Positions 7,884 to 36,055 of a stretch of DNA of 64,000 nt are shown here, piece by piece. The notes under the pieces are model-generated. The model was not told the DNA's origin. It ran no database searches and was given only the letters and a program-made list of their open reading frames with translations. The position numbers and the translations under genes are program-made. Position 1 is the first letter of the stretch, and each line of letters begins with the position of its first letter. The DNA is from Candidatus Latescibacterota bacterium (GTDB lineage Bacteria > Latescibacterota > UBA2968 > UBA8231): positions 4,224,001 through 4,288,000 of the forward strand of contig CBDETY010000003.1 of the NCBI GenBank assembly GCA_965243025.1, read 5' to 3'.

Positions 7884-9080
7884 ATGAGAATGCGCATCTA
7901 CAAGTCGAGCCTGGGAATCACAGGTTTGCTGACCGGTCTCTTCGCGCTTGGAGAGGGCCTCTCGCTATTTGCCCAGAACCAGCCGGCCCGGGCTGCTGGC
8001 GAGCATCACGAGGAATCCGGGGAGAGGGTACGGCTGAGCGCAGCGGAACGGGCCGAGTTCGGCATCGAGGTCGCAAACGCCTCCCCGGGCAAGCTGGCGA
8101 TACAGGTGAATACACCCGGGGAAGTGCAGGTCAATCCCAATCTGCTTGCCCACATCGTTCCCCGGGTTCCGGGGGTCGCCAGCGAGATCTTCGCCAATGT
8201 CGGAGACCGGGTGAAGCAGGACGAGATCCTGGCAGTGCTGGAAAGCCAGGAGCTCTCCGAAATGAAGTCGGCATACCTGGTCGCCCAGGAGCGCCTGGAG
8301 CTGGCTCAGGCAACCTTCGACCGGGAAGAAACCCTGTGGGCCCAGTCGATCTCTTCGGAGCGGGTATTCCTCGAGGCCAGGACCAGGCTGGCGGAAGCGC
8401 GGATCGACCTGCGGGTGGCCGAGCAGAAGCTTCGCGCCCTCGGGTATTCCGTGTCCAGCCTGGAGAAGCTGTCCTTCGAGGGGGACGAGCGCTTTACCCG
8501 CTACGAAATAAGGGCCCCCTTCACGGGGACCATCATATACAAGCACATAACCCAGGGGGAAGTGCTGAAGGAGGATTCCGAGGCCTTCATCGTGGCGAAC
8601 CTGCGTTCCGTGTGGGTCCTGTTGACGGCTTACCAGACGGATCTGCCGTTCCTGCGCGTCGGCCAGGCCGTCCATATCCAGGGAAGCCAGGGCGGCCCTT
8701 CCACCACCGGAACCGTGGACTATATCAGCCCCATCATCAACGAGTCGCTGCGGACAGCTTCGGTTCGCACCGTCCTTCCCAACCCCGACGGCCGTTGGCG
8801 GCCCGGCTCCTTTGTCACCGCAACCATTGATGTGGAAGGCATCGATGTTCCCCTCCTGGTGCCGGGTTCCGCCGTCCAGATGCTGGAAGACCACCCGGTC
8901 GTCTTTGTCGAGACCGGCGGGGAATTCGTCCCCCGGCCGGTCCGCTTAGGCCGCGCCAACCCCACCCATGCCGAGATCGTCTCCGGGCTGGAACCGGGAC
9001 AGCCGTATGTCTCCCGGGGGGCCTTCGTCCTGAAAGCCCAGCTGGAAAAGGGCGCTTTCGGCGAAGGCCACGCCCACTGA
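7884..9080 (+). CDS. czcB: RND periplasmic adaptor (CzcB-like)
   Basis: PRVPGV...VGDRVK, IRAPFTGTI, LPNPDGRWRPG, His-rich ends; start uncertain (7815/7884/7890). Confidence 0.85.
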   Translation: MRMRIYKSSLGITGLLTGLFALGEGLSLFAQNQPARAAGEHHEESGERVRLSAAERAEFGIEVANASPGKLAIQVNTPGEVQVNPNLLAHIVPRVPGVASEIFANVGDRVKQDEILAVLESQELSEMKSAYLVAQERLELAQATFDREETLWAQSISSERVFLEARTRLAEARIDLRVAEQKLRALGYSVSSLEKLSFEGDERFTRYEIRAPFTGTIIYKHITQGEVLKEDSEAFIVANLRSVWVLLTAYQTDLPFLRVGQAVHIQGSQGGPSTTGTVDYISPIINESLRTASVRTVLPNPDGRWRPGSFVTATIDVEGIDVPLLVPGSAVQMLEDHPVVFVETGGEFVPRPVRLGRANPTHAEIVSGLEPGQPYVSRGAFVLKAQLEKGAFGEGHAH

Positions 9081-20000: not shown

Positions 20001-23000
20001 TAGACGGAGGCCACGCCGGCAACCACAAACACCGTGTACTGGGTGCCTACCGTCAGATTCGGAATCACATGGCGTGTACCGCTGGTCACCTCGGCTAGGC
20101 GGGAGGCGTCGAAATCCTGCGTGCCCGATTTCCAATAAACTCTATACATCGTGGCGTCAGGGACTGCCTTCCAGGATACCGTGAGGGCTTCTACGCCGGC
20201 AGCCCGCACGTTGGTTACCTGGCCCGGCTGCGGAGTGCCCGTGGCCGGAGCGGAAGCCGGTCCATCGTCGGCGTCTCCGGTCTCGATTATTGTAGCAATC
20301 ACCTGAATTGTGTATTCGATGCCTGCCGTCCGACCGCCAAGGCCAATCGAAGTATGACTGAAGCCAGGGTCGTCGCCGACTTCAATCAGCGCTTGGCGGT
20401 TCGTTTCGTCGTAGTCCTCGTCCCCCGACTTCCACTGCACCTTGTAGCCGGTGGCGCCCGTGACCTCGTCCCATGCTACGGAGAGATGGTACGGGCCGGG
20501 AGTTACCATCACGTTCGCGACCTGGCCCAGACGATCCGTCGGAGTCCCGAAGGCCTCATCCGAATCCGGTCCGTCGCCCGTGGAAAGGACAGCTATTACC
20601 CGTACCGTGTATTCGGTGTCCGGTTCCAGATCCGGAATCGTATAGCTCAAACCGGTCACTTCTTCTTCGCGGTCGTCGGTTGCCGCATTCGCGAACGTCT
20701 CCGATCCCGACTTCCACTGCACCTTGTAGCCGGTGGCGCCCGGGACCATGCTCCACGATACCGCGAGCCGCTCCGGGCCGGGGTCCACCATCACGTTCGC
20801 GACCTGGCCCTCAGCCACCGGCACCGGAGTGCCTGTTGCTTCGTCTGAAGGATCGCCGTTGCCGCTCGCATTGTAGGCGATCACCTGCACCGTGTACTGG
20901 GTCGCGGGGTCCGCCGTCAGACCCTCAATCGTATACCTCGTCCCCGTAATATCCGTGGCTTCGCGGTTGTCGGTTGCGGCATCCGCGAACGTCTGCTGAC
21001 CCGACCTCCACTGCACCGTGTAGCCGTCGGCCCCGGTAACCTCGTCCCACGACAGCAGGAGCTTCTCCGCCCCGGCCACCACATTCACGCTTGCCACCTT
21101 GCCCGGCAACGGCGTGCCTGTGGCTTCGTCTGAGGGAGCGCTGTCGTCGGTCTCCGGGGTGTTGGAGTTGCTCAGGTCCAGAGTGGCGATCACCTGCACC
21201 GTATACTCGGTGTCCGCCGAAAGGCTTTCGATGGTGTAACTCAGACCCGTCCTCCGGCCTTCGCGGGTTGCCGGGTCGTAGTCCTCTGACCCCGATTTCC
21301 ACTGGATCTTGTATCCAGCCGCCCCCGGGACCGCCGTCCACGATACCGTGAGCGCCCCCGAGCCGGCAGTCACCGTCACCCCCGTCACCGTGCCCGGCGC
21401 AGGGGTGCCTCTTTCTAGATCCGAGGCCGCCCCCAACCCGCCTGCGTTGGAAGCGAAAACCTGCACCGTGTACTGGGTGCCTGCGATCAGATTCTCAATC
21501 ACATAACCGAACCCATCTTCCAGCGTATAACTGGGCGCATCTTCCAGGCGCGCCGTTCTGGTGTCGGCCGCATCATCACTATCAAGCAAGTTGTCGAAAT
21601 CCTGGCTCCCCGACTTCCACTGCACCGTGTAGCCAGTGGCGCCCGGGACCAATTCCCACGTCACCTCGAGCTGCTGCGGGCCGCGAGTCACCGTCGGGTC
21701 CACCTTGCCCGGCAACGGGGTGCCGGTGACTTCCTCTGAGGGCGGACCATTACCTACAGTTTCGGTTGCGTGTTTGGCGTAAACCTGCACCCAGTACTTC
21801 TGACCCGGAGGCATCAGCATGCCAGGACCACGCAGGTCCGTCATTGTTAATGTTACCATCGTAGGTGGCGTTGCACCTGCAGCGACGTCTTTCATCCTTG
21901 ACCGGGAGCTGTACTCCTGCGAATCCTCCCTCCACTGCACGGTGTATCCATCAGTGGCTCCCGGTTCGGCATCCCACGATACGTCGAGGGTCCCCTGGCC
22001 GAGGGCTACCCTCACGTTCTCCACCTGGCCCGGCGCAGGAGTTCCTGCGACCCCGGTTGAAGGATCTCCTTCCGCGTCCCCGGCCAAGGTAGCAATCACC
22101 CGCACCTGGTACGCGGTTCCCCCTATCAGATCCGGAATCGTATAGTTCCTTGAGGATGCGGACACCGTCTTCTGGTTGGTGCCTTCGGTGGCTGTGAAAG
22201 GATCTGGGAACGATGCTTCCGTCGTCCACTGCACCTTGTATCCAGTGGCATTCGGGACCGCGTCCCAGGTCACCTCGAGCGCTTCCGAGGCGGATGTCAC
22301 CTCCACCTGCACCACCATATTATTTGTCGATGCTACCGGGGTGAAAGGCGAGCTTGCTGATGCCTGTCCATTGCCTCCTTTGGTTGTTGTGGCGTAAACC
22401 TGCACCGTGTAATTAGTGCCCGCCGTCAGCCCCATAATCCTATAGGAAGGGTCACCAGTTTCCGGCTGGTCAATCGTGGCCTGGCGGGTCTGGTCGTAAT
22501 TCACCTCCGTCGCCAACTTCCACTGCACCGTGTAGCTATCTGCCCCTCCGATCCGGGTCCATCCTACATTGGCCCCCCAGGCATATTCTGCGGTAGCGGT
22601 CACAGTCAGCGCCCCCACCTGGGCCGGCTTCGGGGTGCCTGTGGCATCGTCTGAAGGCGTGCCGTCGTCCGTCGCCGGGTCGTTGTTGGTGGGATCGCTG
22701 GTGGCAATCACCCGCACCGTATACTCGGTTCCCGCCGTCAGGCCCGTCGTAATCGTATGGCTCGTTGCGGTCACCGTTGCTTCGTTGGTGCCGTCGATGG
22801 GTGTGAAATCATCCGCATCCCAAGAGGCAACGCTAGTCGCATCCCTCCACTGCACCTTGTATCCAATTCCAGTTCCAGAAACCGCCCTCCACGATACCGT
22901 AAGCTGCGCCGCGGCCTCGGAAGTCACCGTCACTCCCGTTACCTGGCCCGGCTTGGGTGTTTCTGTGGCCTCGGCTGAGGGCGTGCCGTCCCCGCTCGTG

Positions 23001-26000
23001 TTCATGGCGATCACCCGCACCGTGTACGGGGTGCCCGCCGTTAAACGAGCGGAAATCTCATGACTGGTTTCGGTTCCCGCGACCACGTTTTGGCGGGTCC
23101 TCGGGTCCCAATCCTGGGTTCCCGACTTCCACTGCACTTTGTAGTTATCAGCCCCCGTCACCTCCCCCCACGCCACGGTGAGCTTCCCCTCACCGGGAGT
23201 CACGGGGCGCACGGGGGGATCTGCGGTTAGATCCTGAGTAACGAGAATCACCTGGCCCGGCGCCGGCATGCCTGTGGCGTCGGCTGAGGGTGCACCGTCC
23301 CCGCTCGCGTTTACCGGGACCACCCGCACCGTGTACTCAGTGTCCGCCGACAGACTTGGAATCGTATGGGTCGTTGCGGGTGCGGTCACCGTTGCTTCGT
23401 TGGTGCCGTCGGTGGGTGTGAAATCATCCGCACCCCAAGAGGCTACCTCCGGATCCCTCCACTGCACCTTGTAGCTGGTGGCGCCCGTGACCGCGTCCCA
23501 TTCCACCGTGAGCTGCTCCGGGCCGGGAGTCACCGTCGGGGTTCCCACCATGCCCGGCTCCGGCGTGCCTGTGGCGTCGCCTGAGGGTGTGCCGTCGCCG
23601 CCAGGATTGAAGGCGATCACCCGCACCGTGTACTCGGTGCCCCCCGTCAAACTACCAATCGTATATTCCGGGTCATCGAGACCATCGGTCACCGTTTTTT
23701 GGTTGGTACCTTCGGCCGGTGTGAAATTAGCCGCAGTCCAATCGCTATTAACACTCGCATCCCTCCACTGCACCTTGTAGCCGGTGGCCCCGTCAACCGG
23801 TTCCCATTCCGCCTTGAGCTCCACCGAGCCGGGAGTCAACGTCACGGTTCCCACCGTGCCCGGCGACGGCCTTCCTGTGGCCTCGGCCGAGGGGTCGCCG
23901 TCGCCGCCAGCATTGTAGGCGATCACCCGCACTCGGTAGAGGGTACCCCCCAGAGCCGTGTCCAAAGCAGGCGACGTGCCATCACCAATTGTCGTCGTCG
24001 CCGTACTCGCACCGGTCTCCACGACTTGACGGCTGTCGGGGTCCCAATTCTCTGACCCCGTCCTCCACTGCACCTTGTAACCGGTGACACCATCTAACGC
24101 GACCCAATTCACCGTGAGCTGTCCGGCCTGGCCGGTAGTGGCCTCCGCAGTCACGCCCGTCACCTGGCCCGGCTTGGTCCACCCGTCCGTAAACGGGGAA
24201 GCTTCTCCAGCCGCCCCGCCCACCGTAGCAGTCACCTGCACCGTATACTGGGTGTTCTCACTCAGGCTCCTGATCGTATACCGCGTACCGCGAATCCCTG
24301 AAGTAGCCTCGCTGTCGTCGGTAAACGCGGAGAGGTCTCCCTCTTCCCACTCTACCTTGTAGTCGGTGGCCCCGGTGACCGCGACCCAGTCCACCGTAAG
24401 CTGCTGCGAGCCGGGAGTCACCGTCACGCCCGTTACCTGGTTGTTCCCCGGGGGTCCCGGGGTTGCAGAAACTTCTGAGGGCGCCCCATTGCCCCCATCG
24501 TTTGTGGCTGTGGCGTACACCTGCACCGTGTGCGCGGGGCGCCCCAGCCCCGTAATCCTATGCGAAGGATTTTCCCCAGTGGGGGTCTGGTCGATCACCT
24601 TGGTGCGGGTCCCGGGCCCGGTCCCGTCGTAATTCACCTCCGTCGCCAACTTCCACTGCACCGTGTAACTCTCTGCCCCCTCCAACCGGGTCCATGTTAC
24701 CGTAACCTCCCCCGGTAGGGCGGGAGTAGACTGGGCCAAGCCCTGCACCGGGCCCGGCTTCGGGGCGCCTGTGGCGTCCTCTGAAGGCGTGCCGTCGGCT
24801 AGAAAAACGTCCTCGACCGCAACTGCGGCCGCATCGTGTGTGGCAATCACCCGCACCGTGTACTCGGTGCCCACCGTCAGAGGCGTTGAAGGAGAAATCG
24901 TATAGCTCGTTGCGGTCGCCGCTGCTTGGTTGGTGGCGTCGGGTGTGAATGCATCCCAAGTTGCAACACTAGTCGCATCCCTCCACTGCACCTTGTATTC
25001 AATTCCAGTTCCAGAAACCGCCGTCCACGATACCGTAAGCTCCGCCGCCGCGTCGGAGGTCACCGTCACCCCCGTTACCTGGCCCGGCTGCGGAGTGCCT
25101 GTGGCGGTGGCTGAGGGCGCGCCGGGGCCGCTCGTGTTCATGGCGAACACCCGCACCGTGTATTCGGTGCCCGCCACCAGATCACGCGTAATCTCATGAC
25201 TGGTTGCGTCCTGGTCTTCCATGCCTTGGCGGTCGCTCGGGTCCCAGTCCTGCGTCCCCGACTTCCACTGTATTTTGTACTCATCGGCCCCCGTGACCGC
25301 CTGCCACTTCACGGTGAGCTTTTCCTCACCGGGTTCCACCGTCAAGGCATCGGTATCACTGGTTTCATCCGGGCCGTTCACTTGGCCTGGCCTCGGCCTG
25401 CCTGTGGCGTCGTCTGAGGGCGTGCCGTCGCCGCCGTTGCTGGCGTCGGTGTTGTCGCCGTTGGTGGCGATCACCCGCACCGTGTACGTGTTCTCCGCCG
25501 ACAGACCTCCAGTAGTCGCCGTAATAGTATGGCTATAGGTTGTTGGGAGTGGGTCAGAGGTCGACGCGGCCACCGTTTCTTCGTTGTCCGGGTCCGTTCC
25601 GTCATCGTCGGGCTCGAAATCCTCCCAAGAGTCTACCTCATCCGGATCCCTCCACTGTACCTTGTAGTTAGTGGCGACATCTAACCCGTCCCAGGTCACC
25701 GTGAGCTGTCCCGCGGCGGCAGGAACGGTCACCGTCACGCCCGTCACCTGGCCCGGTGCCGGCGTGCCAGTGGTGGGCGTAGGATCAGTACCACCGGGCC
25801 CATCGGGATCATCCGAGGGATGGCTGTAGTCGCCGTACATGTCTTTGGCGAAAACCCGCACCTGATACGTGACGGCCGGATCCAGTCCCGAGATTATTTC
25901 CTCATATTTCATCTCCGTCCCAGCTTCAATGACCCGCTGGCGTTCGGCATCCCAAGCTTCATCTGGATCAGTATCAGCATCATCTCCATCGGCGGCATTC

Positions 26001-26194
26001 CTCCACTGCATCTTGTAGCCGGTTGCCCCCTCTACCTTGGGCCACTCCACCGTGAGCTGCTCCGGTCCGGATTTCACCGTCACTGTTGGAGGAGCAAACT
26101 GCGCTTGCAGCCCCCTTGGGAGAAACGAAATGGCCAGCAAGACGAGCATTCCCCCTCGCAACCATTTCATGGATACTTGGTGGCTATTTTTCAT
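17024..26194 (-). CDS. Giant secreted fibronectin type III repeat protein (3057 aa) with C-terminal FlgD-Ig/sorting domain
   Basis: Signal peptide (..LPRGLQA/Q), about 21 repeats of LTVxW..GATGYKVQW..YTVRVIA, Pro/Thr linker, NYPNPFNPETTIKY...KMLLLK tail; AGGAG RBS before ATG 26194. Confidence 0.9.
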   Translation of the reverse strand: MKNSHQVSMKWLRGGMLVLLAISFLPRGLQAQFAPPTVTVKSGPEQLTVEWPKVEGATGYKMQWRNAADGDDADTDPDEAWDAERQRVIEAGTEMKYEEIISGLDPAVTYQVRVFAKDMYGDYSHPSDDPDGPGGTDPTPTTGTPAPGQVTGVTVTVPAAAGQLTVTWDGLDVATNYKVQWRDPDEVDSWEDFEPDDDGTDPDNEETVAASTSDPLPTTYSHTITATTGGLSAENTYTVRVIATNGDNTDASNGGDGTPSDDATGRPRPGQVNGPDETSDTDALTVEPGEEKLTVKWQAVTGADEYKIQWKSGTQDWDPSDRQGMEDQDATSHEITRDLVAGTEYTVRVFAMNTSGPGAPSATATGTPQPGQVTGVTVTSDAAAELTVSWTAVSGTGIEYKVQWRDATSVATWDAFTPDATNQAAATATSYTISPSTPLTVGTEYTVRVIATHDAAAVAVEDVFLADGTPSEDATGAPKPGPVQGLAQSTPALPGEVTVTWTRLEGAESYTVQWKLATEVNYDGTGPGTRTKVIDQTPTGENPSHRITGLGRPAHTVQVYATATNDGGNGAPSEVSATPGPPGNNQVTGVTVTPGSQQLTVDWVAVTGATDYKVEWEEGDLSAFTDDSEATSGIRGTRYTIRSLSENTQYTVQVTATVGGAAGEASPFTDGWTKPGQVTGVTAEATTGQAGQLTVNWVALDGVTGYKVQWRTGSENWDPDSRQVVETGASTATTTIGDGTSPALDTALGGTLYRVRVIAYNAGGDGDPSAEATGRPSPGTVGTVTLTPGSVELKAEWEPVDGATGYKVQWRDASVNSDWTAANFTPAEGTNQKTVTDGLDDPEYTIGSLTGGTEYTVRVIAFNPGGDGTPSGDATGTPEPGMVGTPTVTPGPEQLTVEWDAVTGATSYKVQWRDPEVASWGADDFTPTDGTNEATVTAPATTHTIPSLSADTEYTVRVVPVNASGDGAPSADATGMPAPGQVILVTQDLTADPPVRPVTPGEGKLTVAWGEVTGADNYKVQWKSGTQDWDPRTRQNVVAGTETSHEISARLTAGTPYTVRVIAMNTSGDGTPSAEATETPKPGQVTGVTVTSEAAAQLTVSWRAVSGTGIGYKVQWRDATSVASWDADDFTPIDGTNEATVTATSHTITTGLTAGTEYTVRVIATSDPTNNDPATDDGTPSDDATGTPKPAQVGALTVTATAEYAWGANVGWTRIGGADSYTVQWKLATEVNYDQTRQATIDQPETGDPSYRIMGLTAGTNYTVQVYATTTKGGNGQASASSPFTPVASTNNMVVQVEVTSASEALEVTWDAVPNATGYKVQWTTEASFPDPFTATEGTNQKTVSASSRNYTIPDLIGGTAYQVRVIATLAGDAEGDPSTGVAGTPAPGQVENVRVALGQGTLDVSWDAEPGATDGYTVQWREDSQEYSSRSRMKDVAAGATPPTMVTLTMTDLRGPGMLMPPGQKYWVQVYAKHATETVGNGPPSEEVTGTPLPGKVDPTVTRGPQQLEVTWELVPGATGYTVQWKSGSQDFDNLLDSDDAADTRTARLEDAPSYTLEDGFGYVIENLIAGTQYTVQVFASNAGGLGAASDLERGTPAPGTVTGVTVTAGSGALTVSWTAVPGAAGYKIQWKSGSEDYDPATREGRRTGLSYTIESLSADTEYTVQVIATLDLSNSNTPETDDSAPSDEATGTPLPGKVASVNVVAGAEKLLLSWDEVTGADGYTVQWRSGQQTFADAATDNREATDITGTRYTIEGLTADPATQYTVQVIAYNASGNGDPSDEATGTPVPVAEGQVANVMVDPGPERLAVSWSMVPGATGYKVQWKSGSETFANAATDDREEEVTGLSYTIPDLEPDTEYTVRVIAVLSTGDGPDSDEAFGTPTDRLGQVANVMVTPGPYHLSVAWDEVTGATGYKVQWKSGDEDYDETNRQALIEVGDDPGFSHTSIGLGGRTAGIEYTIQVIATIIETGDADDGPASAPATGTPQPGQVTNVRAAGVEALTVSWKAVPDATMYRVYWKSGTQDFDASRLAEVTSGTRHVIPNLTVGTQYTVFVVAGVASVYGQPSDEVTGTPTRRRPSTPSTPSTPTPQPPTTPPAQPTTPPVTTAPKDPKPGKVVLSSVKAGAEGGQLAVKWRVMAKASGYKVQWKSGDQDFSSSRQARVSGMLAVNHVIGDLDYTIEHMVRVIAYNQHGDGPPSDSREATPKRGVPKNNLAIEDPDEARTVGQAISLTVSVAEEGAHVLEVTGGRGVTLSGDGVTDQGGGSAQLDADSWSEGQRTVVLNDTVGPDVLSIVLRNTDGDSLAGLSGIMYNPGEASQLVVTGLPDTLAVGRAYRGQVSATDSYGNVRTEDREVTISTDARNVSSSSPVELEEGTGGFWVRSDEVPATALVLTFEDSEDSDLSSSVSVTVRPLDAPDRVVAADNPGDEGGFVLLTWDLSDDHSILDTYRIFRGEGSAREWGSVAAAPGATEGRAVVATLDTMSSVWGVLGQIGGSSMMDDMACMADIVVTGSDVDGLEVLVWRTGSGNRVSSPRSSNILWKGTTDATGQVSLSVNNSGRTSSYAATARRDGELVASWRGIQLTPSDCPSLELAIGGEATVGGATDQRPSVVLMSSITQSGSARAIDNTPPAAAGSFRAVDVPDDDGGQIQLSWTESTSDVSITRMVEGAVGPVTSDMSRGVVGYRIYREEAEGFALLGTVGPGVTGFVDTTAITGIRFTYVVSAFDQDNETVSEEEEAMSIRNREEDVNGKLIQGLFGADKTVGFDDYFHFADHYGSSVEDTEWEPAFDLAAKQAVDIDGYNVFAENFGRQTASAAKVIPLEPGRNEQTRLDFFGGVPLPRVGEEFVLTLHLSDFGLLKGYGFQVEFDGEELEVVRAVAADNGLGEGILANPQVLAVAEGKQAIVAYGDEVSEGTVAVELVFRALREFEDGWIRITEGQVRDGAFAVNPLVLPAPVQMETLPEVYALGFNYPNPFNPETTIKYALPQASDVKLVVYNSIGQVVRTLVNERQSIGRYVFTWDATNDRGQAVSSGIYLYRLQAGEFAQVRKMLLLK

Positions 26195-26709
26195 CAGAAC
26201 AGTCCTTCTCCTTTGAGAAAACCGCATCTTCACACGGTTCGGACGAGGGTAGATTTTCGATATGGTGGGTTAAACGAACTATTGGCATGTCACGATTCTT
26301 AAAAGTAAGGGGCATTCTGCCATGGAGTCAAGCTTTTCGGGTGAGTCTTGTTGATGATTGAAGCATCTGAACCAATTACATATTACATATTCATATGTTC
26401 TTAACCGGAGAAATCGTGGCTTCCTTCTGTGTAAAAGAACCAAAGATCATTCGGGAATGTCAAGCTATTTTTGTGTCGATCCGAAACAGGCTGAACCCTT
26501 TCCGAGGGCGTCCCGCAAGGCCCCAAAAAGTTGCATGCGAAGAAAAAGTGCCCGATTTTCGCCGTCGCGTCAACATCTGGCCCCCCAAGGCGTCCTGAAC
26601 AGGCGGGGCCGCGGTTCGGCTGTTCCGCCGCCGGTTTTGCCCCTGACCTGATTATTCAATAAGAGCACGAAGGACCAAATAGTAAAGGACGAATAGGACG
26701 AATGGGATA

Positions 26710-27918
26710 ATGGATGATCTTTTCGAATCCCTGTTGGACGGATGCGCCGAGGGTTCCTCTGCGGACGGCATCTGCATCGACACCGAGCTGGAGCCGCTGA
26801 CCGGCCCGGGCGGGCCGGTCAAGCCGGCGGTATACGCCGGCGGCAGGTATCAGCAGGACCGCCGCTGGGCGAGCCCGGAAGCGGCCGAATCCACGCCGGT
26901 GCTGGTGATCGACAACGTGCCGTCGCAGGCCAACCGCCTGGAAGAGGCTTTGCAGGACCGCAACCGGGAATCGCCCTTTTTCCCGGAACTGGTCCTGGAT
27001 CTGTCCTGCGTGGCGCCTCTGCCGGCGCATCTGCCGCGCCGGCTTTCGAGTCTGGAGTTTCCCCACCGCAACGCGGATGCCTACCTGCGGGACGCCCGGC
27101 TCGAGGGCGTCGATTTCCTCCGAACCGACCTCGGGCGAGCGATTTTCGCGGCGACCCCGCAGGAGTGCGGAGCGCTGATGGCCTGGTTTCCGCAGGCGTT
27201 GCTGTTCGGCTTCTGGCAATCGCATCTGGGCAGGAAGCGGCACAGCACCAAGCACGCGCGGTCCTGGGTATCGGAGATCGTGGGCTGGAATCCGGGCGCG
27301 GTGGACACCCGGCTGCTGGGCATGAAGGGCGACCCGTTGAACCTGAACACCGACCAGGCGATCACCTCCAACCCCAACGACCGGATGAGCTGGGAGATCG
27401 GGGAGGGGGCCGCGGTAACGGGGGGCCGTAAGGACAAGCTGTCGGAGATCGGCCACGGCCGGGTGCCGTTCATGGGGGAGGAGGAAGCCGCCGCCGGGCC
27501 GGTGTCGTTTGCGCGGGTGACCCAGCGGGCAACGGTGTCGTTTGCGCAGCTTCGAAAGGTCGGTCTGGGCCCGGACCGGGCGGCGGCGGAACAGGCGGCG
27601 CGGGCGCTGCTGGTGGCCGTGGGGCTGTATGCCCACCTGCGGGCCTTCGGCCGGGGGTTCGCGCTGCGTTCCGGGGCCGAGTTGCGGCCCCGGGAAACGG
27701 CGGCGACGTGGCTGGGAAGCGACGGGGACGAGCCCTGCGCGATCGGCCCCGTCGAGGCCGCCGAACAGCTTTTGAGGCAGGCGCACGAGCACGCCGGGGC
27801 GGCCGGGGTGCCCCTGGACGGCTGGGGCCGGCCCCCGGTTCTGCTGACCCCGAAAAAAAACCTTCACGCCGCGATCCGGGCTACCTGGCCGGACTTCGAC
27901 GACAACGGGGGGACCTGA
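26710..27918 (+). CDS. csb1: Type I-G (I-U) Cas7 / Csb1
   Basis: VKPAVY, IDNVPSQANRLE, PHRNADAYLRD, LLFGFWQS, LSEIGHG, ALRSGAEL. Confidence 0.88.
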   Translation: MDDLFESLLDGCAEGSSADGICIDTELEPLTGPGGPVKPAVYAGGRYQQDRRWASPEAAESTPVLVIDNVPSQANRLEEALQDRNRESPFFPELVLDLSCVAPLPAHLPRRLSSLEFPHRNADAYLRDARLEGVDFLRTDLGRAIFAATPQECGALMAWFPQALLFGFWQSHLGRKRHSTKHARSWVSEIVGWNPGAVDTRLLGMKGDPLNLNTDQAITSNPNDRMSWEIGEGAAVTGGRKDKLSEIGHGRVPFMGEEEAAAGPVSFARVTQRATVSFAQLRKVGLGPDRAAAEQAARALLVAVGLYAHLRAFGRGFALRSGAELRPRETAATWLGSDGDEPCAIGPVEAAEQLLRQAHEHAGAAGVPLDGWGRPPVLLTPKKNLHAAIRATWPDFDDNGGT

Positions 27919-27922
27919 CCCG

Positions 27923-29344
27923 ATGCTGGCCGTCTCGGTGGAGTTGCTGCACGGGACCTTCCGCGCCGACCCGGACGGCAGCGCCGGCACCGGCCGCCTG
28001 GGGCGGGGCGAGTGGCCTCCGGCCCCGGCGCGCCTGTTGGCGGCCCTGGTCGCCGCCGACGGCACCGGAGCCCGCTGCCGGGGAACCGACGGGTCGGAAC
28101 TGGCCTGGTTCGAGGCCCTGCCGCCGCCGGTGATTTACGCGCATGGAGCCCCCTGGCATCAGGACCTAGAGCCCCGGTTTGTGGTCAAGCAGCACGGGGG
28201 GGCGGTAAAATCCACGTACCGGGAGTATGTGGGCCGCGCCCCCGTCGAGGTCCGGCCCGGGGTGCGCGTCACGCCGCGTTGGCCTCGGATCGTGTACCTG
28301 TGGCAGGCACGGGCGCCCGGGGCGATGCTGGCGGCGCTGCGCTACCGGGCCGCGCGCATCGGCTATCTGGGCGCGGCCGACTCGCCGGTGCGGGTTCGCG
28401 TTGAGACGCAGCCGCCCGATGGCCCGCCGGAGGACCCCTTCGTCGCGGCCGGCGACGGCGACGTACCGATCCGGGTTTCGGCCCCCGGCGACGTGGCCCT
28501 GCTCGACGGGATCTACCATGCCTGGTGCGAGCACGGGGCCGAGGTCGCCCGGTCCCGGTTCCCGGGGTTGCGCCACGAGCAATGGTACCGGTCGCCGCGG
28601 TTTGCGGACCGACCTGCCCCCCCGGTGGCCGCCTGGCTGCGCTTGGCCGAAGCGCTTCCGGGCCGTCGCGTGGCGGCGCTCACGGCCCTGTTCAAGCGGG
28701 CCGTTCTCCGGCAATACGAGGAGCTGTTCGGGGAGCCGCCGGCGGTGTTGCACGGCCATGGATTCCCCACAAAAGGCTTCGAGCTGGCCCGCTACCTGGC
28801 CCTTGCCGATGCGGGGTATGCCCGCTCGACCGGACGCATTCACGGCCTGGCGCTGTGGCTGCCGTCCGGACTGGATTCGGGCACACGCCTCAAGGCGCGC
28901 GATGCGGCCTGTGCCCTCCGACGGCTGACCGGCGGGGGCCTGGACGTGTCGGTGGCGCCGCGAGAGGACGAGCCCCGGCCGTGGGCCGCCCACCCTAACC
29001 GCTGGTGCGGTTCCGCCCGCCGGTGGGCGACGGTCTTTCCGGCGATTCACGAGCGGCGGGGCCGGCTCGATCTGGCCGAACTCACCCGCTGGTGCCGCCA
29101 TGCCGGGCTGCCGGGCGGCCCGGTCGCGTTCCGCACCGGGCGCGCCCCGCTGGTGCGCGGCGGCATCGATCTGGCACCGCCGGAAGTGAACCGCCCGGGC
29201 CGACCCGGCCAGCCCGGACTGCTCTACTCCCACCTCGAGCTGTTGTTCGAAGAACCCGTGGCCGGCCCGGTGGTCATCGGCGCCGGGCGGCAGCGCGGCT
29301 TCGGGCTGTGCGTGCCGGTTTCGGACAAAGCCGGACCCGGCTGA
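27923..29344 (+). CDS. csb2: Type I-G Cas5/Cas6 fusion Csb2
   Basis: EWPPAPARLLAALVA, GYLGAADS, C-terminal Cas6 G-loop GPVVIGAGRQRGFGLC. Confidence 0.88.
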   Translation: MLAVSVELLHGTFRADPDGSAGTGRLGRGEWPPAPARLLAALVAADGTGARCRGTDGSELAWFEALPPPVIYAHGAPWHQDLEPRFVVKQHGGAVKSTYREYVGRAPVEVRPGVRVTPRWPRIVYLWQARAPGAMLAALRYRAARIGYLGAADSPVRVRVETQPPDGPPEDPFVAAGDGDVPIRVSAPGDVALLDGIYHAWCEHGAEVARSRFPGLRHEQWYRSPRFADRPAPPVAAWLRLAEALPGRRVAALTALFKRAVLRQYEELFGEPPAVLHGHGFPTKGFELARYLALADAGYARSTGRIHGLALWLPSGLDSGTRLKARDAACALRRLTGGGLDVSVAPREDEPRPWAAHPNRWCGSARRWATVFPAIHERRGRLDLAELTRWCRHAGLPGGPVAFRTGRAPLVRGGIDLAPPEVNRPGRPGQPGLLYSHLELLFEEPVAGPVVIGAGRQRGFGLCVPVSDKAGPG

Positions 29345-32061
29345 TGCGATCGACGTTTGGCGAATTCTACCGGGCCCTGTACGGCCGCGAGCCGTTTCCC
29401 TGGCAAGCGCGACTGGCTGCCCAGGTCACCCAAACCGGGGACTGGCCCGACGAGATCGGCATCCCGACCGGGCTGGGCAAGACGGCGTGTCTGGACTTGG
29501 CCGTGTGGTGGCTGGCGCTGCAGGCCGAACGCGCCCCCGCCCGCCGCACGGCCCCGACCCGGATCTGGTGGGTGGGCGACCGGCCGCTGCTGGCCGAGAA
29601 GGCCAGCGACCGGGCCGAGGCCCTCAGCGCCGCGCTCCGCGAGCCGGCCACCGAGGCGGTCGCCGCCGTCGCCGACCGCCTGCGCTCGCTGCCCGCCGAC
29701 CCGGCCGGCGACCCCCTGGAGGTGATCGAGCTTTCCGGCATCGCCTCGCCCCGGCCGGCCGACCCGTCCCAACCCGCGGTGATTCTGTCCTCCCTTTCCC
29801 TGTACGGCTCCCGGTTGCTGTTCCGCGGCTACGGGACGACGCGGTCGATGCGCCCCGTCGAGGCCGCCCTGGCCGGCACCGACAGCCTCGTGTTCCTCGA
29901 CGAGACGCCCAGGGCCGCCCCCCTGCGGGGAGCCCTGGTGCCGGCCCTGGGCGAGTGCACGCCCCGGGCCCAGGCCGTTCTGGGAACGCCCCGCTCCCGG
30001 CCGCGATTCGTGGCCCTGACCGCCACCGGGGGCACCGGGGGGGAGGGCCGCTTCGGTCTGGATGCGGCCGACGAGGCGCATCCGGTCGTGAAACGGCGGT
30101 TGAATGCAGCCAAGCCGATGGACGTACGCTGTTGCCCGGACGACGTCGGAAGGACGTTGGCCGCCGAGACGCTGCATCTGGCCCAACAGGCGGCGGGGCC
30201 GGCGACGTTCCTGGTATTCGCCAATACCCCGGCGACGGCCCGGTCGGCGTTCGACCGCCTTCGAGACCGGCTGGCCGGCGAAGCGGCCGAGATCCTGCTG
30301 GTGACGGGCCGGTCCCGGCAGCGGGAAGCCGAACGGACGCGGCGCTTCCTCCTCGATCCGGACCAGGGCCTGTTTTCCTCCCGAGCCGCCGGGCCCCGTC
30401 TGCGTCACCTGATCGTGGTGGCCACCCCGGTTCTGGAGGCCGGGGCCGACCTCGACGCGGAGTACCTGGTCACCGAAGCCTGCGGGGTGCGGGCGCTCAC
30501 GCAGCGGCTCGGCCGCCTGAACCGGCTGGGCCGTTTCCGCCACGCCCGCGCCGTCTACGTCCATCCCGACGCCCGGGAATGCCCGGTCTACGGGGCCGAA
30601 CCGGCGCAGGTGCTGCACCGGCTGCAACAGGCCGGCGCGGGCGACGAGGCCCCCGTGAACCTGTCGTCGCGCCGCATCGCCGGCGTGTTGGGCTCCCCCG
30701 AAGACGATCCGGGCCGGGCCCCGGAGGTGTTGCCCGCCTTGGTGTGGGAATGGACGAAAACCGCCACGCCCCCCCAGGGCGAAGCCCCCGTCGAACCCTA
30801 CTTCGCCGGCATCGCCGGTACGCAGTACCGGGTGTCGCTGCTGTGGCGCGTCCATGTCCCGGGGCAAGGCCAGTACCTCTGGCCGCGGCTCGATGCGGGC
30901 GAACTCGTCGAGGTGCCCCTGGACGAGGCGCGCGAGGCGTTGGAGGAAACCGAAGGACTCCGGCGCCTGGGACCCGACGGGGTATCGGTGGAGGTCGTTT
31001 TCAAAGAGGCCCTCAAGCCCAGCGACGTGGTCGTGCTGCCGTTCGACCGCGGCCTGCTCGACGAGTTCGGCCAGTGGAATCGGCACGCCCGCCTCCCCGT
31101 CGCCGATTTGTCCATCGCCCGGCACGGGTTGCCCCTAAGCCGGACCGCGCTTTGGGGCCTGTGCGGCCTGTCCCTCCCGCAAAAGCTCATCGACCCGGTC
31201 GCAGGCATCGGCCCCGACCACGAGGCCCTCGACGAGGCTGACCGCATCGAGGCGGCCGACAAGATCCTGGATTTGGCGTCCCTTGCCGACCCTCCCCCCG
31301 GATGGCAGGACAGCCGGTGGCAGGGGTTCCTCGCCCGTTTGAAGAACCGGCCCCCGGTCGCCCCGCCCAAAGAGGTGCCCCGGGTGCCCCTGTCCGTGGA
31401 GCCGGAACCTTGCAGCGACGAGCTCGACGAGCTGTCCCTGGCCGAACAGGCCGTCCGGCTCGATGTCCACGGCCTGGCGGTAGGGGAGCGCGCGGGGGCC
31501 ATCGCCGAGCGCCTCGGCCTGCCGGCCGGTCTGGCCCGGACCGTGGAACGGGCCGGACGCCTGCACGACCTCGGCAAGGCCGACCGCCGCTTCCAGCGCT
31601 GGCTCGATCCCGGGGCGCACCACGACACCCCCCAGGCCAAGGCCCCCCTGCCGCGCCATCGCTGGACCGCCGCCCGGGCCGCCGCCGGATGGCCCCGCTC
31701 AGGCCGCCACGAAGCCCTGTCGGCACGGCTGGTTCAGCAGGGGCTCAAACAGGCCACCCAGGGCGATCCGGTGCTGGAAGACCTGCTCCTTCATTTGGTC
31801 GTCAGCCATCACGGCCACGGCCGCCCCCTCGTGCGGCCCGTACCCGACGAGACCGCCGGCCGCGTGTCCGGAGACGTCGAACACGCCCACCATGCGGTGT
31901 CGGCCGACCTGTTCCACGTCGATTGGGAACAGCCGACCCGGTTCAAAAAACTCAACGACCGGTTCGGGCCGTGGGGGCTGGCCCTGCTGGAAACCATCGT
32001 ACGGCAAGCCGACCATGCGGTGTCGGCCGGGACCCGAACAGGCCGCCTCGAGGTGCGCTGA
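29344..32061 (+). CDS. cas3: Type I-G Cas3 (N-terminal helicase, C-terminal HD), motif II atypical
   Basis: PFPWQ, IPTGLGKT, GSRLLFRGYG, FLDETP, QRLGRLNR; HD motifs LHDLGKAD, RHE, SHHG, ADH. Confidence 0.9.
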   Translation: MRSTFGEFYRALYGREPFPWQARLAAQVTQTGDWPDEIGIPTGLGKTACLDLAVWWLALQAERAPARRTAPTRIWWVGDRPLLAEKASDRAEALSAALREPATEAVAAVADRLRSLPADPAGDPLEVIELSGIASPRPADPSQPAVILSSLSLYGSRLLFRGYGTTRSMRPVEAALAGTDSLVFLDETPRAAPLRGALVPALGECTPRAQAVLGTPRSRPRFVALTATGGTGGEGRFGLDAADEAHPVVKRRLNAAKPMDVRCCPDDVGRTLAAETLHLAQQAAGPATFLVFANTPATARSAFDRLRDRLAGEAAEILLVTGRSRQREAERTRRFLLDPDQGLFSSRAAGPRLRHLIVVATPVLEAGADLDAEYLVTEACGVRALTQRLGRLNRLGRFRHARAVYVHPDARECPVYGAEPAQVLHRLQQAGAGDEAPVNLSSRRIAGVLGSPEDDPGRAPEVLPALVWEWTKTATPPQGEAPVEPYFAGIAGTQYRVSLLWRVHVPGQGQYLWPRLDAGELVEVPLDEAREALEETEGLRRLGPDGVSVEVVFKEALKPSDVVVLPFDRGLLDEFGQWNRHARLPVADLSIARHGLPLSRTALWGLCGLSLPQKLIDPVAGIGPDHEALDEADRIEAADKILDLASLADPPPGWQDSRWQGFLARLKNRPPVAPPKEVPRVPLSVEPEPCSDELDELSLAEQAVRLDVHGLAVGERAGAIAERLGLPAGLARTVERAGRLHDLGKADRRFQRWLDPGAHHDTPQAKAPLPRHRWTAARAAAGWPRSGRHEALSARLVQQGLKQATQGDPVLEDLLLHLVVSHHGHGRPLVRPVPDETAGRVSGDVEHAHHAVSADLFHVDWEQPTRFKKLNDRFGPWGLALLETIVRQADHAVSAGTRTGRLEVR

Positions 32062-32065
32062 CCCC

Positions 32066-32968
32066 ATGCAGAAAGCCCGTGAGAGGTGTCCGGGGTTGCC
32101 CGGCTTTTGGATCAACGGCTGGCTGGCGGCGGTGGGAACCACGGTGCTGAACCCGCGAATCCGGCTGGGCTGGACCGAAGAAGGCGCGCCCCGGGCGCTG
32201 CTGTCCTGCCCGCCGCGCCTCGACCCAGTCGAGGCCCTCGCCGCCGCCTGGCCCGACGCCGAACAGATAGCCGGGCTGCCGATCGCCGAACAGTGGCAGC
32301 ACACCCCCCCCTTGCAGCGCAAGGTTTCCCTGGAAACCTTTGCCCAGCGTGCCCGCGCCGCCCGAGGCCACCCCCAGGCGTGGGCCCTGTCGTCGACCCT
32401 GACCGATCTCTGCGTCGACGAGAACGGCCAGGTCGCCCATGCCCCCTTCGATCCGGCCGGGCCCGGATCCGTCAAGTGGCTGCATCACCGACTGAAGAAA
32501 GTGCACGCCCTGGGGGACCCCGACCGCATCGCAGACTCCTTGGCCGGCAGGGGAAACCGGGTCAAAAACCACGGCCTGGGATTCGATCTGACCCGGCTGG
32601 GCTCCCTGTCGGATTCGACCTCGGCATGGGTCGATCCGGTAATCGAGGTGCTGGCCTTCTTCGGCCTCGCCCTCCTGCCGGTGCGCGGAGCCGGGACCGA
32701 CCGGCGCAGGGCTTTTCCGGCTCCGGCCCGCGAAATCCAGAAAGGATGGGTTGCGGAAAACCGGTGGGAGCGCCGCTTCACCTGGCCGGCATGGCGCCAG
32801 CCCCTGGACAGCACCGGCATCGATGCGCTGCTGGACGCCTGGATGACCGTCCGCAACGACAAAAACCAGTGGCCGACCATGGGAGTGCATGCCGCATGGC
32901 AGACCGTACAGTTCAAGCCCAGAGGCACCGCCGACATTACCCGGGCCTTTGGCGCCGAGCGAGTGTGA
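32066..32968 (+). CDS. Type I-G large subunit (Cas8u2/Csb3-like)
   Basis: Directly after cas3; NGWLAAVG, DPVIEVLAFFGLALLPV, FTWPAWRQPL. Confidence 0.7.
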   Translation: MQKARERCPGLPGFWINGWLAAVGTTVLNPRIRLGWTEEGAPRALLSCPPRLDPVEALAAAWPDAEQIAGLPIAEQWQHTPPLQRKVSLETFAQRARAARGHPQAWALSSTLTDLCVDENGQVAHAPFDPAGPGSVKWLHHRLKKVHALGDPDRIADSLAGRGNRVKNHGLGFDLTRLGSLSDSTSAWVDPVIEVLAFFGLALLPVRGAGTDRRRAFPAPAREIQKGWVAENRWERRFTWPAWRQPLDSTGIDALLDAWMTVRNDKNQWPTMGVHAAWQTVQFKPRGTADITRAFGAERV

Positions 32969-32997
32969 AGAAATTCCAGGGGCAGGCAAAGCCCCGT

Positions 32998-33187
32998 GTC
33001 GCCGGAAGAGGAAAACCCCCGGTCTTTGTTGAGCGGATTGTCAAGCCCTTTTTTCACCCCAGCCCACCGGGGTCGTCGCCGGGGTCGATCCCCCGGCCTT
33101 CGTTGAGCGGGTGTCAAGCCTTTTTTTAGCTGAGGCCCTCACCGGGTCCCGTCGCCGGGGAGGATCCCCCCCGGCCTTCGTTGAGCC
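32998..33187 (+). CRISPR. Degenerate mini-array: 3 repeats, 2 spacers
   Basis: Repeats GTCGCCGG(G/A)...CCCCCGG(C/T)CTT(C/T)GTTGAGC at 32998-33035, 33075-33109 and 33151-33187 with a CCGG(GG)/(CC)CCGG stem; spacers 39 and 41 nt; 29 bp after the last cas gene. Confidence 0.8.
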
Positions 33188-33826
33188 GCTCGAAGAACAC
33201 CCCCCCTTTGGAGATGGGAAGAATTGCCGCCGGTCCCCCGGATCGGACCGGGCCATCGAGGTGCGCGACCCTTCGGTGGTCCCCTTTGAGGAGATCGAGG
33301 AGGTGGTTTCGATTCGAGTCGGTCCGGGACGTGGTGCAGGAACTCTGCAAGGTGCACCAAGAGTTCTCCCTGGCCGAGTTTCGCTCCCGGTTCCTGCATT
33401 ATTTCAAGGACGCCAGCCTGGAAGCCCAAACCCGGCACCGTATCAGCGACAAAGCCTACGAGGTGGGCCTGCTGGGCCTGCGCAAGATCGGGGACCTGAA
33501 GTTCATGGGCGACGAGGACCCGCCCAAGTGGGGAGATTCCGCAGACTGAAGTGATTGAACGTGAGGTGGGGATGGATCATGGCGGATGGATAAAGTTGGC
33601 CACCCGACTAACAATCCGAACCCGAGAAGGGCAAAGTGCAGCCCCGATATGACAATCATCGAAGCTTCTCGTTTGGCGGAAATCAGGCGGATCCTTACCA
33701 GCTAAAGGATAGGCGCAACGCATTGCACCTACCCCCTGGTCGGCATCTACCGGCTGCGCCAGTGGTTCAGGACGATCTGAATCACCTCCAGCGCGACTTC
33801 CAGCAGAATCGCCAACCATCGTGGCA

Positions 33827-34543: not shown

Positions 34544-35536
34544 CTATTTGACCAGATCCCGATACAACAGCCGTTTCCCCACCATCCGCGCCACCAGGTC
34601 CTCCATCTGCTCGAGGGTGTCCTTGTCGCGGATGTTGTGCCGGCCGACGAATTCGTCGATGTACCGCTGCAGGTGCTTGGGGGACATGGAGTGATAGGTT
34701 CCCTTGTAGGCTCGCTTGATCATCGACCAGAAGCTTTCGATGCCGTTGGTGTGGGACCCATCGGTTGAGAACTGGCCTTTCGAGTGAATGACGAACTCGG
34801 ATTTTCCCGGCCACTTGAAATCCTTCAAGGCACTGGCCCCGTCGCTGTAGAGGGTGCCGTTTGCTCTCAGGTGCTTCCGGGCGAACGCCCTCAGAATGTC
34901 GGCAGTCTCTCCAGGAACCACGCTCGCGGCGACCTTGCCGGTTTTTCGGTCCTTCATGCCCACCACGATGGTTTTTCCCTCCATCCACCGTTCCCGCAGC
35001 CTCTTGTCGGCGTGCTTGTTGGCCTCCTTTCCGCCAAAATAGGCCTGGTCGATCTCGCCTCTCCTGCTTGAGAGCTTCTCCTGGTCCGACCAGGCCTCGC
35101 GGATGCGGTGGCCCATGAACCAGGCCGTTGCATGCGTTACCTGGAGGTCCCGGTGCAGCTTCATGCTGGACACGCCCTTGAGGCTGGACAGGTGCAGGTA
35201 GATGGCGATGACCCATTTCTGCAGGGGGACCTTGGAGTGGGACAGCACCGTTCCGGTGCGAACGCTGAAGCGCTTTCGGCAGTCCCCGCACCAGTAGGGC
35301 ATGGATTGTCGGTCGGGACATTCCGATATCATGCCGTAACAGCCGCAGTGCGGGCAGTGGATCTGCTTGCTCCACCGGGTTTCTTCGAACCAGCGTTCGG
35401 CCGCGATGTCGTCGGGGAACCTGGCGAACAGCTCGATCAGGGACAGGCCGTTCCGGTCGTTCCTTCCCGGCCCTTCGGGGACGAGCCCCCTGCCGGCCTT
35501 CGACCAGCGGCCCAGGAATCGTTTCAGTCTTTTCAT
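34544..35536 (-). CDS. IS1595-family transposase (central, divergent copy)
   Basis: CPHCG..WCGDC, EIDQAYFGG, LYSDG, HTNGIESFW, MSPKHLQRYIDEF; AAGGA RBS. Confidence 0.9.
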   Translation of the reverse strand: MKRLKRFLGRWSKAGRGLVPEGPGRNDRNGLSLIELFARFPDDIAAERWFEETRWSKQIHCPHCGCYGMISECPDRQSMPYWCGDCRKRFSVRTGTVLSHSKVPLQKWVIAIYLHLSSLKGVSSMKLHRDLQVTHATAWFMGHRIREAWSDQEKLSSRRGEIDQAYFGGKEANKHADKRLRERWMEGKTIVVGMKDRKTGKVAASVVPGETADILRAFARKHLRANGTLYSDGASALKDFKWPGKSEFVIHSKGQFSTDGSHTNGIESFWSMIKRAYKGTYHSMSPKHLQRYIDEFVGRHNIRDKDTLEQMEDLVARMVGKRLLYRDLVK

Positions 35537-36055
35537 GGTTTCCTTTCTGGTGAGAAGGGGAGGAGCGGGTTGTCGGGACCGATCCCCCCGCGCAGGCCGT
35601 TCCGTGACCCCATGGCAGGTTGAAAACGGCTGCAACGGGTACCCCCGCTGCCTCCCCACTGCCTTATTCAATTATATATATAGAGTCTCAAGCCCTTTCA
35701 TGGATCGAACCGCCCCGAGGCCCATGCACTGTCCGGCCTGCCGAGGTAAACCGTATGCAAGGTCGATGTCGTCTGTGGAAAGGCGCCGCCCGCGGCTTGG
35801 CCTGATCCCCAAAAACCTCTGGGAGGCCGGATTTCGGTGTCCACCTCTGTCCGTCCGTACCCGGTTCGATTCTGCCTGGCTGGATGCCCTCGCTTCCGAG
35901 CGCACGGCACGGGTGAGCCGCGATTCGACGCCTCCTGCGCGTCGGCAGTTCCTACGGGATCGACATGGACCGGGTTCTTCGGCAAGGGCAGACGATACGG
36001 CCTGACCGACCCCGGCCACGACCCTTCCGGTACCCGGACGGGAGAGGACTCAGAA

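Follow-up and report, generated by a model that had tools for sequence, protein, structure and literature searches.

A leaderless two-spacer mini-array behind a type I-G effector operon in a Latescibacterota genome: possible regulatory guides in a system without adaptation genes

Regulatory mini-arrays of short palindromic repeats that are clustered and regularly interspaced (CRISPR), such as the CreR and CreA elements, are known as accessories of working immune systems. Here we describe a locus of comparable build in a stretch of 64,000 nucleotides (nt) from a Candidatus Latescibacterota bacterium (contig CBDETY010000003.1, positions 4,224,001 to 4,288,000; G000:C3:4224001-4288000 in our numbering). 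We call this stretch the window; the genome to which it belongs has 6.8 Mb and is 96% complete. The element consists of three repeats and two spacers in the order R1-S1-R2-S2-R3, and it starts 27 nt past the stop codon of adj, the last gene of a type I-G cas operon. We tentatively read it, with a probability of roughly 0.45, as a regulatory mini-CRISPR of the CreR or crlRNA kind in a type I-G system that has neither adaptation genes nor other guides.

In the part of the CreR preprint that we draw on (10.1101/2023.03.10.532045), the CreR and CreA mini-CRISPRs repress cas or toxin promoters, and as the elements decay the first repeat retains the handle and the following repeat the 3' hairpin. 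The same part states that creA-like elements have also been seen for subtype I-U, now I-G, and examples of these may already be shown in its Figure S7. Set beside this account, the window shares a degenerate mini-array next to cas genes. It also follows the pattern of decay, with the handle kept in R1 and the hairpins intact in R2 and R3, and the likeness of its guides to a site adjoining a -35 hexamer is limited to the part proximal to the protospacer-adjacent motif (PAM), with one candidate site upstream of the cas operon. On the other hand, the window has two paralogous guides in place of one, its genome has neither a canonical array nor an adaptation module, so that nothing competes with the guides, and the mini-array has no leader or promoter of its own in view. 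Moreover, the best seed match (S2 with a site named P3) lies beside a paralog of a giant gene and not at the cas operon, the cas-proximal seed is imperfect, and motif II of Cas3 is altered.

The operon holds four effector genes on the forward strand, about 6.2 kb in all, each open and of full length. The first, cas7g (Csb1/Cas7g; 26710..27918, 402 amino acids (aa), intact), matches Pfam Cas_GSU0053 at 3.8e-33, TIGR02570 and PADLOC Cas7g, and its product is 70% identical over the full length to the ortholog in the sister genome G001. Then come csb2 (27923..29344, 473 aa, intact), a Cas5-Cas6 fusion and the crRNA (CRISPR RNA)-processing subunit, in which TIGR02165 covers 1-466 of 492 profile positions (1.8e-48) and PADLOC Cas56g reaches 1.4e-70, and cas3g (29350..32061, start approximate), a helicase with a C-terminal HD nuclease (TIGR02621, 1.7e-163; PADLOC Cas3g). 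The scores of all three TIGR profiles exceed their cut-offs. The fourth gene, adj (31892..32968, 358 aa), is a Cas3-extension or short Cas8g-like gene; its homology with relatives starts near 32087, with 64-66% identity to the orthologs of G001, L015 and G165, while NF049934 scores 64.5 bits against a cut-off of 65 and the PADLOC Cas8g match is weak (2.4e-6). It stands where canonical systems have the large subunit Cas8g/Csx17; no Csx17 was found.

By its gene content, namely Cas7g, Csb2 and a Cas3g with C-terminal HD, the locus is a sub-variant of type I-G. The canonical systems of Thioalkalivibrio and Geobacter, as far as they are treated in the portion of 10.1101/2022.08.08.503147 used here, share these three proteins and a repeat geometry of 7-bp stem, 4 nt and 8-nt handle. 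They differ from the window in having Csx17 where the short Cas3-extension or Cas8g-like gene stands, and the window has no cas4, cas1, cas2 or leader, only three repeats, and spacers that are related to each other.

Three sister loci share the sub-variant with the window, in G001 (same genus), in G165 (same family) and in L015, a metagenome-assembled genome labelled Vicinamibacterales; the Cas proteins of the window are 58-72% identical to theirs. All three are arranged as cas7g-csb2-cas3g-adj-cas4-cas1-cas2, followed by a leader and by an array that runs in the direction of the cas genes. There are 25, at least 109 and about 50 repeats in these arrays, their unrelated spacers measure 33-45 nt, and no extra mini-arrays were found inside these sister cas loci. 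In the genome of the window, the Pfam families Cas1 (PF01867) and Cas2 (PF09827) have 0 matches, and a tblastn search with Cas4, Cas1 and Cas2 of G001 found no homolog there; the one match of a long open reading frame (ORF) in an overlapping frame is the adj gene. The conserved end of the leader, TTAGCA, ATAGCA or TTGGCA before repeat 1 in the sisters, is absent upstream of R1. What separates adj from R1 is only a junction of 27 nt (32969..32995, forward strand), which by sequence and fold has a stem GGGGC...GCCCC and may be the tail of an older spacer. Because the junction is so short and the leader end is missing, we conclude that a deletion took most of the array together with the leader and cas4-cas1-cas2.

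Three other studies yielded contigs in which the mini-array stands between the same flanks (0-13 differences or gaps per about 0.9-1.3 kb); the locus is therefore stable within the species. One of them (X5) has 0 differences across 32397-33256, the second (X6) 2 other letters and 3 gaps across 32460-33751, and the third (X8) 7 other letters and 6 gaps across 32210-33408; these copies add no evolutionary depth. A pattern built on the repeat-spacer junctions had 0 matches in genome contigs and 0 in metagenome contigs, and no relatives of the adj protein were detected among metagenome contigs.

The boundaries of repeats and spacers in the window were taken over from the three sister arrays, which have the same repeat family. 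The repeat is laid out as a 5-nt tail, a 7-bp stem (GCCGGGG-loop-CCCCGGC), CTTC and the handle GTTGAGCG; the geometry from stem to handle is present in R2, R3 and all sister arrays, and across seven genomes the repeat is invariant but for 5 loop positions. For I-G, the consulted part of 10.1101/2022.08.08.503147 reports that Csb2 cuts 4 nt past the 7-bp stem and leaves an 8-nt handle; judged from its letters, the geometry of the window repeats matches this processing. All elements of the mini-array lie on the forward strand. R1 (32996..33035) is degenerate, with GG changed to AA in the 5' arm, an enlarged loop and 2 changes in the 3' arm and CTTC; despite the damaged stem, 8 of 8 bases of its handle are intact. 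R2 (33072..33109) agrees with the family consensus in stem, CTTC and handle, has one additional base in its 5' tail and the loop TCGATC. R3 (33148..33187) has an intact stem and CTTC, with CCCGTC as its 5' tail and AGGATCCC as its loop, and the only core change is that of the last handle base from G to C.

R2 and R3 differ at 1 of the 26 positions of their core, which comprises the two arms of the stem, CTTC and the handle. In tail and loop they differ in 6 of 14 columns (Fisher p = 0.004), and in 17 of 54 once the spacers are counted in (p = 0.005). With Tandem Repeats Finder, 33016-33186 comes out as a 74-nt unit in 2.2 copies with 80% matches. The 3' half of the repeat occurs nowhere else in the genome; the other matches have 2-3 mismatches and do not rise above what the reversed control gives. 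No intrinsic terminator was called in the array, and Rfam at gathering thresholds had no match within the window. Pfam found no family in the ORFs 3' of the mini-array and no phage families among the neighbouring ORFs.

The preliminary description of this DNA had presented the two spacers as paralogs and as a duplicated unit, noting that acquired spacers are normally unrelated. This part of it is supported. S1 (33036..33071, 36 nt, GATTGTCAAGCCCTTTTTTCACCCCAGCCCACCGGG; positions 4-24 are TGTCAAGCCCTTTTTTCACCC) and S2 (33110..33147, 38 nt, GGTGTCAAGCCTTTTTTTAGCTGAGGCCCTCACCGGGT; positions 1-17 are GGTGTCAAGCCTTTTTT) share TGTCAAGCC, with T6 or T7 after it, and have CACCGGG at their ends; the sequence is as had been described. 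Their global alignment scores 15, with 29 of 40 aligned columns identical. As a control we paired the 129 ordinary spacers of two sister arrays, which gives 8256 pairs with a mean score of 3.65 (standard deviation 1.87); a score of 15 was reached by one pair only, a near-identical duplicate, and the spacers of ordinary arrays in this repeat family are unrelated. Against a wider set of 172 control spacers, neither S1 nor S2 scored above 9. Both repeat-spacer units go back to one, and the kinship between S1 and S2 is best explained by a single old duplication of such a unit.

The stretch 33067-33087 contains CCGGGGTCG in two copies 12 nt apart, the first made up of the end of S1 and the beginning of R2, the second of the R2 5' arm and loop. 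Because of this double occurrence, the CACCGGG ends of the spacers may be a slipped copy of the 5' arm of the repeat, CGCCGGGG. If so, the true guides would shorten to about 26-28 nt.

The reverse complement of the shared stretch TGTCAAGCC(C)TTTTTT reads AAAAAA-GG(G)C-TTGACA, that is, an A-tract and a -35 hexamer. We find the pattern TGTCAAGC-NN-TTTTT at 5 places in the genome, where simple arithmetic from base composition gives an expectation of about 0.01: in S1, in S2, and at three sites outside the array, P2, P3 and P4. In 76 genomes of the family the motif has 94 matches, which fall in 50 of these genomes, compared with 10 matches of the reversed control, and most of the 11 contexts displayed read TTGACA-17-TAnnnT; we therefore take it as the local strong-promoter signature. 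P2 (26455..26490, forward strand, with the motif TGTCAAGCTATTTTT at 26458-26472) is a candidate partial target of S1 and lies 252 nt before the ATG of cas7g, in a 476-bp intergenic region that cas7g shares with an opposite-strand gene of 3069 aa with fibronectin repeats. P3 (C3:6035410-6035447, with the motif at C3:6035412) stands beside a paralog of this giant surface-protein gene and has an ORF of 171 aa behind it. P4 (C3:5933653-5933688, with the motif at C3:5933656) has a tyrosine recombinase as its neighbour, in an intergenic stretch rich in AT, and its module is conserved in G002, a sister genome. P1 (26259..26340, reverse strand), a paralog of these two modules, has the promoter-like build GCTTGACT-17-TTACTT ... 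ATAGTTCGTTTAACC and faces the giant gene. About 60-75 nt further on, P1 (here 26296-26340), P3 and P4 have ATAG(T/C)T(C/T)GTTTAACC, of which these are the sole 3 copies in the genome.

We also considered the motif as a minus-strand promoter inside the array; this was rejected because no -10-like hexamer was found 16-18 nt after TTGACA on reading R1 and R2. In G136, a genome with 16 matches to the motif overall, 14 copies of the variant TGTCAAGCCTTTTTT are spread over many contigs, and 5 of these copies lie 50-115 nt from the end of a contig; the variant probably lies in the terminal part of a multicopy mobile element.

How well do the guides fit these sites? In type I complexes every sixth base of the guide is flipped out (stated in the part of 10.1101/2022.08.08.503147 at hand), and match counting was limited to the pairing positions, with every sixth base left out. 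Over its first 18 nt, S2 matches P3 at 15 of 15 pairing positions, with mismatches only at the unpaired positions 12 and 18. Apart from S2 itself the genome has no other such site, and a 15/15 site was reached by none of 120 composition-matched shuffles of these 18 nt. S1 matches P4 at 20 of 21 contiguous nt (34.2 bits), a score reached by none of 300 shuffles of S1. Near the cas operon, a site of at least 13/15 within the 476-bp upstream region was found for none of the 172 control spacers, despite a median of 28 such sites for each of them genome-wide. In S1 only the contiguous 5' part is unusual, and the PAM-distal halves of S1 and S2 match no P site.

There is also a change in Cas3g. Its motif II is DETP in place of DEAH (codons for D-E-T-P at 29899-29910), while Walker A, motif VI and every HD motif are retained. 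Among the other Cas3g proteins of the phylum and L015 that cover the site, motif II is DE[AV]H in 20 of 21 and DEAQ in 1 of 21. Two segments that its three closest orthologs have, 8 and 13 residues long, are missing from the protein. Unique substitutions are most numerous in the genome of the window for all four Cas proteins (for Cas3, 111 versus 65, 31 and 22), counts that have no outgroup and are not interpretable as relative rates. According to the parts of two reports used here (10.1101/2022.08.08.503147; PMC9335239), the I-G Cas3 is an integral subunit of Cascade and perhaps required for its function. Loss of the DExH histidine would further blunt cleavage, with Cas3g staying as a structural subunit, and a Cas3g that is retained and presumably blunted in this manner fits a binding-only role. 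The suggestion of binding without Cas3 cleavage, made in the preliminary description on the ground of hairpins in the spacers, is thus plausible on other grounds, the lost histidine and the fact that it is only by their PAM-proximal 17-24 nt that the guides resemble genomic sites, which are promoter UP/-35 modules; the hairpin ground does not stand.

The analysis shows gene content, repeat family, spacer kinship, promoter-like matches and the change in Cas3; transcription, processing, binding and repression we only infer. In the proposed course, the type I-G locus would be a domesticated one, in which the loss of cas4-cas1-cas2, the leader and most of the array by deletion has left a mini-array with no leader. 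Its two units would be duplicates that are old and have diverged. Read-through from the cas operon would presumably transcribe them; only this, or a promoter that is not in view, can account for their transcription. Cleavage by Csb2, 4 nt past the 7-bp stem of each repeat, would release two crRNAs, both with the 8-nt handle GUUGAGCG. Since the PAM-proximal 17-24 nt of the guides are the reverse complement of the A-tract and -35 signature of the host, Cascade would bind a few host promoters. Such partial-match binding would repress them without degradation by Cas3, as CreR/CreA or crlRNA do. Candidate targets would be P2 at the system's own operon, P3 at the paralog of the giant gene and P4 at the tyrosine recombinase.

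Several results weigh against this regulatory interpretation. P2 was first spotted by eye and the search pattern was set afterwards. The motif is generic, and the likeness to P2-P4 could reflect a source promoter elsewhere and not targeting. S1 matches P4 at 18 of 20 pairing positions in the first 24 nt, with seed mismatches at 1 and 3, and P2 at 13 of 15 in the first 18 nt, with mismatches at 3 and 13. Among the 172 real GC-rich control spacers, 13 reach 15/15 somewhere in the genome and 28 reach at least 34.2 bits. Over its whole length, the best site for S1 in its own genome has 26 of 36 matches, which 2 of 60 shuffles equal. The flanks of the sites, CGG (P2), CAT (P3) and CGT (P4), have no common motif, and they differ from the I-G PAMs TTN and TAT/TAC given in the parts of the reports used here (10.1101/2022.08.08.503147; PMC9335239, Bifidobacterium I-G). 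The conservation of R2 and R3 could stem from the former trailer end of a working array. A retained but presumably blunted Cas3g fits early decay equally well. Decay, finally, is common in the phylum, because remnants of the repeat family without effector genes exist.

A more far-reaching version holds that the whole I-G system, with adaptation and its ordinary array gone and the helicase motif of Cas3 crippled, has turned into an RNA-guided transcription factor, whose two paralogous guides address the A-tract and -35 element of a small promoter family and couple the expression of surface protein and cas genes. Its targets would include the promoter of the giant fibronectin-repeat gene, apparently invertible, and the module adjoining the cas genes. 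We regard this version as doubtful.

The remnants just mentioned are of several kinds. Repeats of this family occur without effector genes in G042 and G013, and as short arrays in G059 and G166. In G042:C2 (L038, about 8360-9030, reverse strand) there are cas2, a 36-aa tail of Cas1, the leader and one repeat, with fragments of Cas3 and Csb2 7 kb off; a separate orphan array in the same genome (L037, about 8518-8700) has 3 repeats, the first without its 5' half. G042 shows two decay stages of one I-G family. G013 has a partial cas2 and 3 repeats. In G166:C388 (L041), two spacers alternate at 1532-1789 as A,B,A,B on a contig of 1789 nt; either a block of two units was duplicated or the assembly has a loop here.

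The strongest alternative to a regulatory role, possible and by no means far-fetched, is that the locus is a decaying remnant. In this explanation a deletion, perhaps linked to IS1595, left only the oldest units at the trailer end, an old tandem duplicate; the system is heading to loss, and the likeness to promoters is a trace of the source of an ancestral spacer. Remnants of the same family are indeed frequent, such as those in G042 (3 repeats, and 1 repeat with cas2 and cas fragments) and G013, and duplications of units happen in ordinary arrays, as the single pair in 8256 and the order A,B,A,B in G166 illustrate. The damaged stem of R1, the missing conserved helicase residue of Cas3g, an IS1595 transposase at 34544-35671 and the imperfect seeds and PAM-side flanks fit decay as well. 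The features shared with orphan or remnant arrays in general are few and mutated repeats, no adaptation genes and an insertion sequence nearby; what sets the window apart is an interference module that is wholly intact and the likeness of the retained guides to host promoters. Indeed, four effector genes of about 6.2 kb have stayed open and of full length, and the array with its flanks is identical in X5 and near-identical in X6 and X8 (5-13 differences or gaps per about 1.2 kb), both of which weigh against decay. The same applies to the sole retained spacers, which both resemble host promoters, one of these adjoining the cas operon, and to the processing core of R2 and R3, which is conserved relative to loops, tails and spacers.

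S1 and S2 may also be immune spacers that were acquired separately, with the same PAM, from homologous strong-promoter regions of two variants of a mobile element; the locus would then still serve in defence and have lost only its ability to adapt. The motif is a family-wide strong-promoter signature of the kind that mobile elements often share, P4 lies in an AT-rich intergenic stretch adjoining a tyrosine integrase, and the starts of S1 and S2 are within 1 nt of a common register. However, no full-length target for them was found: exact-pattern scans of viral contigs gave 0 of 3, BLAST against phage and plasmid records gave only partial matches at chance level (all E >= 0.002), and the best site in their own genome is the one with 26 of 36. 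In searches aimed at the PAM of this sub-variant, the L015 array had no match in phage records and one chance match in plasmids, and the G165 array, searched in 168 genomes, matched nothing but repeats and other arrays. The missing DExH histidine speaks against efficient interference, too, and we consider separate acquisition unlikely.

The preliminary description had proposed that a hairpin in the 3' half of each spacer limits the usable guide to about 20 nt. Both stems can be drawn but are no stronger than expected by chance; folding did not confirm the hairpins as a feature. The stem ACCCC...GGGGU of S1 is in the minimum-energy fold, at -8.2 kcal/mol (z = -1.94; 10 of 200 shuffles are as good), and it is also seen in the minimum-energy and centroid folds of crRNA1. 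For the stem GGCCC...GGGUC of S2, on the other hand, z is -0.41 (63 of 200 shuffles), and when the whole crRNA2 is folded, its minimum-energy structure does not contain this stem; for the whole crRNAs 1 and 2, the z values are -0.54 and -1.24. Ordinary spacers with 6 nt of repeat fold on average at -11.0 (n = 23) and -12.7 kcal/mol (n = 106), that is, equally well or better than S1 (-8.2) and S2 (-11.8) on the same scale. The stems occupy non-homologous columns of the alignment of S1 and S2, because of which there is no covariation between them. Furthermore, the part of 10.1101/2022.08.08.503147 cited here describes that Cas7 keeps the guide stretched in Cascade. With stems at chance level, in different register and weaker than the folds of ordinary spacers, a conserved hairpin that shortens the guide is very improbable, and we drop the claim.

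Phage RNA anti-CRISPRs and viral crlRNAs, in the section of 10.1101/2024.10.29.618823 considered here, are likewise short repeat-spacer units that load Cas proteins without cleavage; they are encoded by phages or mobile elements and directed against the host, in contrast to the window unit, which is chromosomal and linked in cis to its own cas operon. The idea of the preliminary description that the unit is such a decoy, either a solitary repeat unit or a viral crlRNA, finds some likeness in the short array, the degenerate repeats and the absence of adaptation genes, and is hardly credible for a chromosomal unit that follows its intact cognate cas operon after 27 nt and shares its strand, with no phage genes around, near-identical copies with the same flanks in three studies, and no second array in the genome to compete with.

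Some features of the giant gene are worth describing in their own right. The ORF of 3069 aa (17024-26233, reverse strand) has fibronectin type III repeats, seen in the first 500 residues, which were scanned, and internal repeats; there are at least 3 further paralogous regions, near C3:0.235-0.241 Mb, 5.94 Mb and 6.04 Mb. At G000:C3:6035330-6035559 (L036 6331-6560), perfect 13-nt inverted repeats, ATATGATGGGTTA and TAACCCATCATAT, flank a 204-nt segment that contains P3 and sits just upstream of a paralog 88% identical to the giant gene. P3 points away from this paralog, and the homologous P1 in the window points toward its gene; only one arm of the inverted repeat remains in the window (26259-26271). 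By its build, the P3 segment looks like an invertible, phase-variable promoter switch. A tyrosine recombinase of 312 aa (Pfam Phage_integrase; G000:C3:5932164-5933102, L013 4165-5103, reverse strand) lies about 560 nt downstream of P4 and is a candidate for the invertase of the switch, or for part of an integrated element. Genes for IS1595-family transposases are found near both the mini-array (at 34544-35671 in the window, reverse strand) and P3 with its giant-gene paralog (L036 3831-4934, forward strand), and these may be drivers of rearrangements.

What the locus means depends on which of the two leading explanations is true. If it is a remnant, it is a snapshot of I-G decay in which the adaptation module and the leader were lost first and helicase motif II next. 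If it is a regulatory mini-CRISPR, it would be a locus where the regulatory guides alone persist, with an intact effector, a blunted Cas3 and no adaptation. In that case it would represent a natural type I system fixed in a role on host promoters that resembles CRISPR interference (CRISPRi), and a testable case of the exaptation of immunity genes.

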